A DNA stretch of 64,000 bases, taken from Candidatus Omnitrophota bacterium (GTDB taxonomy: Bacteria > Omnitrophota > Gorgyraeia > Zapsychrales > Zapsychraceae). Position 1 is the first letter of the stretch. Each line of letters opens with the position of its first letter. This document shows, piece after piece, positions 48,107-48,548 of the stretch. The stretch spans positions 77,547-141,546 of the forward strand of contig JBFWOS010000002.1 of the NCBI GenBank assembly GCA_050250375.1, given 5' to 3'. A model generated the notes under the pieces. It made no database searches. It had not been told where the DNA came from and worked only from the letters and a program-made list of their open reading frames with translations. Both the position numbers and the translations under genes were made by a program.

Positions 48107-48184
48107 TTTTCAATCCAAAACTTCCGACTAAGATAAATTTTAGCGGTAAATACAAAAGATATTGATAAATAAAGGCTTATAGAA

Positions 48185-48213
48185 TTGAAGGCTGTGGAAA
48201 ACTATGGTATATT
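48185..48213 (+). promoter_or_regulatory. Candidate sigma70 promoter driving the structured RNA
   Basis: -35 TTGAAG (48185-48190), a 17-nt spacer and -10 TATATT (48208-48213). The predicted TSS at ~48220 coincides with the 5' arm of the RNA's closing helix. Confidence 0.45.
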
Positions 48214-48220
48214 TAGACTG

Positions 48221-48457
48221 AGCCGATAAAGGTAAACCCGGGGAAACCCGGGGACACAAAACCGACAGACCTAAAATGTTTAAGGCCAAAGAGGCCCGAA
48301 CAGGCAAAAGAGCCGGGGCAATTTAAGACGAAGATCAGGTCAAGAACAGAATGGTGGCTGGGTTGCCGAAGTGCGATGAGGGAGACATCCTCATCTTTAT
48401 CGGCTTATCTTTCAAACGATAAGCATAAACCCCTTAGACATTAAGGGGTTTTTTTAT
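48221..48457 (+). ncRNA. Candidate structured RNA (~237 nt): either an independent sRNA or an attenuator-type 5' leader of the giant gene. The family is not recognised.
   Basis: A 9-bp closing helix pairs 48223-48231 'CCGATAAAG' with 48395-48403 'CTTTATCGG'. It encloses four elements:
- a 6-bp GC stem with GAAA tetraloop (48237-48252, 'CCCGGGGAAACCCGGG');
- a 'GGCCaaagaGGCC' hairpin;
- a 7-bp hairpin 48375-48395, 'GATGAGG.......CCTCATC';
- a 7-bp hairpin 48403-48424, 'GCTTATC........GATAAGC', whose 5' arm competes with the closing helix.
It ends in an intrinsic terminator. There is no ORF of 60 aa or more in the region. Confidence 0.5.
48428..48457 (+). terminator. Rho-independent terminator (3' end of the RNA candidate / attenuator)
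   Basis: 'AACCCCTTAgacaTTAAGGGGTT' followed by a T7 run. Confidence 0.7.
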
Positions 48458-48466
48458 TGGATTCTT

Positions 48467-48494
48467 TTGATTGCAATAAATAGTACTATATTAT
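48467..48494 (+). promoter_or_regulatory. Candidate sigma70 promoter for the giant gene
   Basis: -35 TTGATT (48467-48472), a 16-nt spacer and -10 TATTAT (48489-48494), ~55 nt upstream of ATG 48549. Confidence 0.35.
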
Positions 48495-48548
48495 ATACTA
48501 ATATCAATTCCAATTCCCCACCGTAGTAGGATAAATCCTAAATTACCT

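Follow-up and report, generated by a model that had tools for sequence, protein, structure and literature searches.

In the Bc1 riboswitch of Bacillus thuringiensis, which belongs to class I of the riboswitches for cyclic dimeric guanosine monophosphate (c-di-GMP), the ligand unfolds a first terminator, T1, and a second one, T2, stays folded and masks the response, as demonstrated by selective 2′-hydroxyl acylation analyzed by primer extension and mutational profiling (SHAPE-MaP) (PMC11218506). The SAM-II riboswitches of Sinorhizobium meliloti (RZ and RA1/RA2) give rise to a discrete small RNA (sRNA) that ends at a validated Rho-independent terminator, beside a read-through mRNA (PMC9373788). 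Here, we describe an RNA element in a stretch of 64,000 nucleotides (nt) from Candidatus Omnitrophota (assembly GCA_050250375.1, contig JBFWOS010000002.1, positions 77,547 to 141,546), hereafter called the window, which lies between trpF and the gene of a giant secreted-type protein and almost certainly contains a c-di-GMP-I aptamer. Bc1 represents its closest platform precedent, with the same aptamer class and two serial terminators, the first of which is putative in the window, and the SAM-II riboswitches resemble it in that a riboswitch is followed by a terminator to make a discrete small RNA (PMC9373788), which is a predicted one in the window. The aptamer itself is an ordinary c-di-GMP-I member, which any Rfam scan would annotate; what is new here is an unusual expression platform on a known aptamer class, and not the RNA class. 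A literature search found no report of a riboswitch characterized in Omnitrophota, the sole searchable papers with both terms being two versions of one on receptor proteins for cyclic dinucleotides (c-di-NMP), and the preprint on giant genes of Omnitrophota makes no mention of c-di-GMP or riboswitches. The element had previously been pointed out in a preliminary description, made from the letters and the open reading frames (ORFs) of the window, as a promoter-to-terminator structured RNA that might be a novel sRNA or a riboswitch-like attenuator.

Results

The covariance-model scan of the window against Rfam, a check that the preliminary description had proposed, matched positions 48221-48370 of the plus strand, on which all features below lie unless otherwise indicated, to RF01051, the c-di-GMP-I riboswitch aptamer, at 59.9 bits, the gathering score being 35. 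The match spanned model positions 1-87 of 87 with an E-value of 3.3e-9 on 64 kb, and it was the sole Rfam match at or above the gathering score across the 64-kb window; an RSV_RNA match was weak and below threshold, like one to the trpB motif, and both were dismissed. The preliminary description had matched the element to no known family, and c-di-GMP-I, which is matched over its full length, was absent from the families it had considered. Its proposal of a novel sRNA or riboswitch-like attenuator thus holds as to the riboswitch and falls as to the novelty, since RF01051 is matched above threshold. Together with an alignment to RF03167 showing helix P1, this result places a c-di-GMP-I (GEMM-I) aptamer at 48221-48371, and we regard this class membership, as judged from the sequence, as close to certain.

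The aptamer resembles Vc2 of Vibrio cholerae, the prototype of the class, in its short P1, GAAA-capped P2, P3 with a receptor-like CCUAA/AUGG, conserved junctions, and contact G, A, and C. Alignment to the model indicated that the equivalents of the ligand-contacting nucleotides are G48231 (G20 in Vc2), A48258 (A47), and C48366 (C92). We take A48258 to have the contact role of A47, which the Vc2 structures are said to reveal. Helix P1 was short and very weak, consisting of C48224-G48368 and G48225-C48367 plus C48223-G48371, which spans an AA bulge. Hairpin P2 (48232-48257; P1b in the Vc2 nomenclature), supported by the RF01051 alignment and by covariation, carries its GAAA tetraloop at 48243-48246 and contains the GNRA hairpin CCCGGG-GAAA-CCCGGG (48237-48252) of the preliminary description. 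P3 (48260-48364; P2 in the Vc2 nomenclature), assigned by the same alignment, has a tetraloop-receptor-like CCUAAA/AAUGG, in which the receptor columns of the model are occupied by CCUAAA at 48270-48275 and AAUGG at 48350-48354, with UAUGG in relatives. Thus, by alignment, the GNRA-capped P2 and the receptor-bearing P3 characteristic of RF01051 are both present. The extension helix of P3 is formed by UGU (48276-48278) with ACA (48346-48348), in register with the covarying UGUC/GACA helix of 4 base pairs (bp) in the family, the fourth pair being U48279-A48345 in the window. The P3 apex holds an insertion of ~65 nt (about 48280-48345), where the model has 3 nt, and the previously listed GGCC hairpin (GGCC-AAAGA-GGCC, 48285-48297) lies within it.

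For comparison, relatives were gathered by a genome scan with the N-terminal module of the giant protein, which yielded 80 paralogous loci, and by searching metagenomes for exact copies of an invariant 19-nt word from the 3′ part of the aptamer. The latter search yielded 115 loci, which include other GEMM-I types and fortuitous occurrences of the word in coding sequence; loci are numbered with the prefix L. In P2 and the P3 extension helix, 8 of the 20 predicted pairs stay paired despite changes on both sides, and the P2 pairs covary among 20 relatives, as in the apical pair, which changes from GC to AU or UG. The folding of the 243-nt stretch gave a z of -5.6 against 200 shuffles.

As for the ligand, the c-di-GMP-I-GGC variant RF03167, which is in the same clan as RF01051, scored 52.4 bits in a permissive scan, under its gathering score of 59. 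The two consensus sequences differ at one junction position after P2 (GACGC-A-AA in RF01051 versus GACGC-G-AA in RF03167), at which the window has A48258; the variant was rejected as the class on both grounds. The 3′,3′-cyclic GMP-AMP (cGAMP)-sensing GEMM-Ib riboswitches are marked by an A instead of a G at the G20 position, a rule that reportedly comes from studies of those riboswitches. This class was also rejected, as the window has G48231, and, by the same specificity rule, the G argues for c-di-GMP over cGAMP as the predicted ligand.

The main peculiarity of the element is a long-range helix around the aptamer. The sequence CCGATAAAG (48223-48231) is complementary to CTTTATCGG (48395-48403), and this complementarity, reported in the preliminary description as a 9-bp helix, is real, but the full helix has 12 bp, pairing 48220-48231 with 48395-48406 at a duplex energy of -18.8 kcal/mol. 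Its 5′-terminal strand, strand A (48220-48231), includes the 5′ strand of helix P1, the junction J1/2, and G48231, the G20 equivalent, and its 3′ strand, strand B (48395-48406), reads CUUUAUCGGCUU; strand A was delimited by folding energy and strand B by alignments, both with family conservation and covariation. The A:B helix was present in the minimum-free-energy fold, and its pairing probability was ~0.9 in unconstrained ensembles of 39 family members. The A:B-helix architecture was common to 52 distinct sequences. The check for covariation, likewise proposed earlier, indicated that the long-range pairing is conserved with compensatory changes in ~50 distinct relatives, in which 11-16 bp can form between the 5′ strand (AGCCGAUAAAGG and variants) and a post-aptamer strand located mostly 20-30 nt past the aptamer. 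Within the giant-gene group, TTTATCGGCTT of strand B is invariant, and in L149, L165, L122, L178, and others, it shifts with strand A, giving the pairs AGACCGAAAGG/CTTTTCGGTCT in L149, GTGAGCCGAAAGGG/CTTTTTCGGCTCAT in L165, TGCC/GGCA in L122, and AAGTGCCGATAAGGG/CCCTTGTCGGCGTTT in L178; a further compensatory example among the relatives is GTGAGCC/GGCTCAT. In a 44-sequence alignment, the core 12 pairs were paired in 82-100% of the sequences, and paired cells amounted to 82% overall versus 37-54% with the partners slid. The covariation score was 0.140 versus 0.117 for shuffles, with 6 of 500 shuffles reaching the observed value.

Because the A:B helix takes up the 5′ strand of helix P1 together with the junction and the equivalent of G20, it and the ligand-bound aptamer would be mutually exclusive; the predicted A:B fold competes with the aptamer by this overlap, as is expected of an expression platform. 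The mutually exclusive pairings proposed in the preliminary description are therefore borne out at the level of predicted structure, with the long-range helix competing with the aptamer and, in the orthologue group, also with the hairpin GCTTATC/GATAAGC. With ligand and tertiary energy left out of account, the aptamer-like fold was less stable than the A:B fold by 12.3 kcal/mol in the nearest-neighbor calculation. The affinity of Vc2-type aptamers for c-di-GMP is in the picomolar-to-nanomolar range, and such tight binding could plausibly offset this gap, by analogy.

Promoter P1 (48185-48213), with a -35 box of TTGAAG, a 17-nt spacer, and an extended -10 box of TGgTATATT, was located by the promoter scan, conserved architecture, and alignments. 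It is the TTGAAG-17-TATATT promoter described earlier, to which the TG extension is added, and it predicts a transcript start at ~G48220. The scan by itself was not significant (5 sites versus 2.1 ± 1.5 expected), and support for promoter P1 comes from family-wide conservation, not from the scan statistic. The same layout of -35 box, 17-nt spacer, and -10 box was observed in ~60 relatives, in which the CCG of the 5′ strand follows the -10 box at a distance of 8-10 nt. The family promoter has a TTGAAA/TTGCCA-like -35 box, a spacer of 16-18 nt (mostly 17), and a TATAYT -10 box, which is extended by TG in 25 of 62 scored sequences; from its position, transcripts would begin with the first nucleotides of strand A. 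The terminator scan found no terminator-like site between the trpF stop codon and promoter P1, and the terminator T described below may therefore also end trp-operon transcripts. Taken together, promoter, helix, and terminator are all conserved in the orthologous and paralogous loci, which, as far as sequence comparison can tell, supports the earlier view of a discrete promoter-to-terminator structured RNA; the sequence elements listed in the preliminary description were all found at the positions given there.

On the 3′ side of the aptamer, hairpin H1 (48375-48395; GAUGAGG-GAGACAU-CCUCAUC, -10.4 kcal/mol), the first 7-bp hairpin (GATGAGG/CCTCATC) noted earlier, abuts strand B. A hairpin is also found in its place in relatives, with a covarying stem (e.g., GCGG...CCGC in L140 and L182). 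The U-rich run UUAUCUUUC (48405-48413) directly follows the G+C-rich base of the A:B helix and, with the helix, would constitute a putative first terminator, T0. Across the 52 relatives, U accounts for 60-75% at positions 2-8 past the helix versus a background of 20-29%, and G is nearly absent there. Hairpin H2 (48403-48424; GCUUAUC/GAUAAGC, -8.5 kcal/mol) offers the U-run and the 3′ end of strand B another way of pairing. When the fold is constrained to the aptamer, H2 forms, and G48403 is common to it and the long-range helix. This second 7-bp hairpin (GCTTATC/GATAAGC) of the preliminary description does exist but is not conserved in the family, being specific to the window, L003 (11 bp), L005, and L126 and absent in L020 and L036. 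It was ruled out as a general switch element because of this lineage-restricted occurrence.

The strong intrinsic terminator T (48427-48457), found by the terminator scan as in the preliminary description, consists of a hairpin at 48427-48451 plus a T7 tail, AAACCCCUUAG-ACA-UUAAGGGGUUU being followed by U-rich UUUUAU. It was present, with differing stem sequences, in ~45 of the 52 relatives, and the remaining ~7 had no second terminator ahead of the next promoter. Partition-function analysis of the 39 members indicated a pairing probability of ~0.9 for T both in the full transcript and in the post-aptamer segment alone, and T is thus predicted to be constitutive and to form independently of the ligand. 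In ~40 sequences, each arm of T was compared with H1, with strand B, and with the spacer, and no conserved antiterminator overlapping T was found, there being only weak, non-conserved antiterminator-like matches, such as UGAGGG/CCCUUA in the window. A classical competition between the aptamer and T was ruled out, as the probability of T was ~0.9 with or without the aptamer 5′ strand. The hairpin terminator, which had been supposed to be the output of the switch, is accordingly predicted to form in either aptamer state.

In the relatives, the riboswitch is found in various settings. The syntenic loci L003 and L005 (trpD-trpC-trpF-giant gene) hold the same aptamer with a match to RF01051, and RF01051 or RF03167 was at or above threshold in 17 of the 18 diverse loci tested, none of which has tandem aptamers. 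Among the 80 paralogous loci, a family-specific covariance model located the riboswitch upstream of three (L007, L020, and L036) and a strict regular expression at two; the idea that it accompanies the giant-protein family in general was therefore rejected, since only this minority (3/80) carries it. The copy in L007 (1002-1197) has an extra two-hairpin insertion of ~47 nt beside P2, between the P2 bulge and the closing pairs, because of which it was missed by the Rfam model; its score there was below the gathering score, yet it reached 86 bits with the family-specific model. L020, L109, L179, L190, and L196 scored 60-62 bits with RF03167, at or above the threshold of 59, despite having the A at the distinguishing junction, and the models RF01051 and RF03167 cross-react on this lineage. 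The 19-nt word also recovered unrelated GEMM-I copies (L102, L117, L119, L138, L148, L169, L174, and L187) of the type CCGATAATAGC/CCGATAATGGC. The CCGATAATAGC-type loci have an A at the G20 position, which we take to be the signature of cGAMP-sensing GEMM-Ib, and are without the long-range helix of the 5′ strand.

The length of the aptamer ranged from 79 to 180 nt in the family comparison, which makes the P3 apex the variable site. The insertions at the apex have the motifs GACC..GAAGGCCC..GGGGCA..GGUY in common, and their GCCC/GGGC hairpin varies in a compensatory manner in the stem (GCCCAUUA/UAAUGGGC in L020 and GCUCGC/GCGGGC in L197). These sequences suggest that the insertion is a three-way-junction elaboration and not random filler.

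The genes upstream of the element are trpD, trpC, and trpF. There is no ORF of at least 60 amino acids (aa) overlapping the RNA region, and the ATG of the giant gene is at 48549, both as noted previously. A minus-strand ORF of 55 aa with a TTG start (48140-48307) overlaps the promoter and the 5′ half of the aptamer; it is probably spurious, as the conservation fits RNA structure and not coding. Between T and the giant gene, the promoter scan and alignments located a promoter-like sequence, promoter P2 (48471-48499; TTGCAA-17-TATACT), which is nearly invariant in four orthologues, with TTGAAA in L004 and the same block in L007. The ~90 nt from T to the ATG are better conserved than the P3 insertion, with 48463-48530 being nearly invariant in the four orthologues and L007, and alignments outlined a conserved leader block at 48506-48526 that contains TCCAATTCCCCACCGTA. 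The latter was rejected as a family-wide element, being confined to the orthologues and L007. Most metagenomic relatives have an extended -10 box (TGnTATAAT) past the terminator, 5-10 nt ahead of the downstream ATG, which suggests that the downstream mRNAs are of the leaderless type. The genes that recur downstream encode a GH1 glycosidase, a 100-aa Cys-rich protein, a 91-aa CxxC protein, an M20 peptidase, and giant proteins. Among L086-L200 (e.g., L090, L098, L103, L106, L160, and L092), GH1 glycosidase genes occurred at ~20 loci, the 100-aa Cys-rich protein, which is zinc-ribbon-like, at ~12, and the 91-aa CxxCxxCC protein at 3.

The giant gene (48549-54350), delimited by the ORF list and homologue comparison, encodes a 1933-aa secreted-type protein with an N-terminal hydrophobic segment and belongs to a large Candidatus Omnitrophota family; more than 3,700 homologues were found, nearly all named ones being from Candidatus Omnitrophota. 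The family shares an N-terminal module of ~390 aa and a C-terminal module of ~80 aa, between which lie highly variable enzyme-like middles (PGM, PGK, His-phosphatase, methyltransferase, NUDIX, and HEAT). The 1933-aa protein had no Pfam match. For the N-terminal module, AlphaFold produced a model of mediocre quality, with a predicted local distance difference test (pLDDT) value of 63 and a predicted template modeling (pTM) score of 0.64, and comparison of this model with the PDB gave no meaningful match (best E = 0.13, TM about 0.1). The translation contains an internal duplication, YLWGLVAMLDPMVYHPHF/YLWGLIVMLDPLVHNPDF. Over the window (1-64000), ORFs of at least 150 aa are almost all on the plus strand, many with overlapping or abutting starts, and Shine-Dalgarno-like motifs precede only some of the genes.

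Discussion

We consider that the locus is best explained as a c-di-GMP-I riboswitch that has a promoter of its own and the arrangement of T0, T, and promoter P2, and we assign to this explanation a probability of roughly 0.6. The elements would stand in the order of promoter P1, aptamer, T0, T, promoter P2, and gene. Without c-di-GMP, the A:B helix would close around the pre-folded domain of P2, P3, and H1, and helix and U-run would act as a conditional intrinsic terminator, T0, to give an RNA of ~190 nt. With c-di-GMP bound, strand A would be locked into the aptamer, and strand B and the U-run would form H2 or remain single-stranded, allowing RNA polymerase to pass T0 (ON logic). Most of the polymerases past T0 would halt at the constitutive T to give an RNA of ~235 nt, and a small ligand-dependent fraction would continue into the giant gene, on top of transcription from promoter P2. 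The constitutive T would scale down, and not cancel, the regulation by T0, with promoter P2 supplying a ligand-independent baseline, and T probably also insulates promoter P2 from trp-operon and promoter P1 transcription. T0 is the simplest reading because of the U enrichment past the helix, the G+C-rich base of the helix, and the copies without T; for the T0/ON mechanism as such, however, we would put the chances at about even.

Several points weigh against this explanation. A terminator with a 150-nt aptamer domain as its loop would be unusual and may be slow to fold, and the U-run of the window, UUAUCUUUC, is interrupted and among the weaker ones of the family. The covariation of the A:B helix is limited, which may be ascribed to the fact that strand A is also constrained by the aptamer, and the relatives were gathered with the exact 19-nt aptamer word, so that a single lineage was sampled. 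In addition, T is predicted to form in both aptamer states, and, with promoter P2 being independent, the effect of the ligand on giant-gene expression may be small, as it proved to be for the gene controlled by Bc1.

This last point leads to the possibility, which we hold to be unlikely, that the unit from promoter P1 to T is an independent gene for a stand-alone c-di-GMP-sensing sRNA, whose ~235-nt product never enters the giant gene and in which the ligand might toggle the exposure of strand B (or H1) to RNAs or proteins, alter RNA stability, or be buffered by the RNA. It would fit the conserved promoter of the unit's own, the transcript start at strand A, and the strong T with its predicted insensitivity to the ligand. 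It would also fit the downstream genes having their own promoters, often with an extended -10 box that precedes the ATG by 5-10 nt, as the leaderless mRNAs suggested by these could not be mimicked by read-through transcripts, and the SAM-II precedent, in which riboswitch-derived sRNAs end at a ligand-independent terminator. The co-orientation of riboswitch and gene is uninformative here, because nearly all genes of the window are on the plus strand. However, a few gene families (GH1, the 100-aa Cys-rich protein, and giant proteins) recur directly downstream of divergent copies, which points to action in cis, and in the ~7 of 52 copies without T, transcripts from promoter P1 can enter the gene. 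Furthermore, no trans target was identified among the downstream leaders, which were inspected by eye only, and pairing with strand A suffices to account for the invariance of strand B, making a target unnecessary.

A distinctly unlikely alternative is that, within a genuine riboswitch, the A:B helix serves just as an anti-aptamer lock and not as a terminator, with the output lying elsewhere, namely, in decay dependent on the 5′ end or an RNase, in RNase III cleavage of the stacked H1 and A:B helices, or in an effect of polymerases at T on promoter P2 (occlusion or recycling). Such outputs would be in line with the sequestration of the 5′ end by the helix, with the abutment of H1 on strand B to make a near-continuous helix of ~20 bp, with the position of T within ~15-40 bp of the promoter P2 elements in most copies, and with the absence of an antiterminator overlapping T. 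The post-helix U enrichment and the copies without T most simply mean termination, though, and the alternative outputs have no direct support here.

That the element is a novel RNA class, an attenuator or terminator element of the trp operon, or a chance structure, unrelated to c-di-GMP, is effectively excluded: the location directly after trpF and a weak match to the trpB motif (RF04312; 48375-48460, 25.2 bits versus a gathering score of 59, E = 0.37) stand against a full-length RF01051 match far over threshold, upstream genes that are unrelated in the relatives, and a structure z of -5.6 plus covariation, and the trpB match itself, far below threshold, comprises just H1, the terminator hairpin, and the U tail.

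Returning to the explanation by T0, T, and promoter P2, a wider proposal may be derived for the whole lineage, which we advance tentatively and regard as unlikely. In this lineage of Omnitrophota riboswitches, the 5′ end would close as a conditional terminator round the aptamer, and an unconditional terminator and a separate promoter, often of the leaderless type, would isolate the unit from the gene. The result would be a c-di-GMP-dependent sRNA with two 3′ isoforms, or an effect on the adjacent promoter via the flux of terminating polymerases, and not classical read-through.

The locus suggests c-di-GMP as a likely input near the gene of a giant secreted-type protein in Candidatus Omnitrophota, which are uncultured and ultra-small and whose giant proteins have been proposed to serve in attachment to, or attack on, other cells. 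In related genomes, the same type of riboswitch precedes genes for a GH1 glycosidase and a small Cys-rich protein. Unlike the c-di-GMP-I prototype, the aptamer of the window has a structured P3-apex insertion of ~65 nt and a very weak P1, and its platform, in a Candidatus Omnitrophota host, uses the 5′-terminal strand and not the 3′ part of the aptamer. The SAM-II riboswitches differ from it in the aptamer class and ligand, are without a long-range helix of the 5′ strand, and regulate translation and stability. The two terminators of Bc1 are ordinary local hairpins separated by 28 bp, and T2 is not followed by a promoter dedicated to the gene (PMC11218506), whereas in the window, the putative first terminator is a long-range helix around the entire aptamer, and downstream of the second there is a promoter. 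A terminator made with the 5′ strand, a constitutive second terminator, and a downstream promoter would thus extend the puzzling dual-terminator case of Bc1, and this arrangement lends itself naturally to testing whether certain riboswitch units act as ligand-sensing sRNAs.

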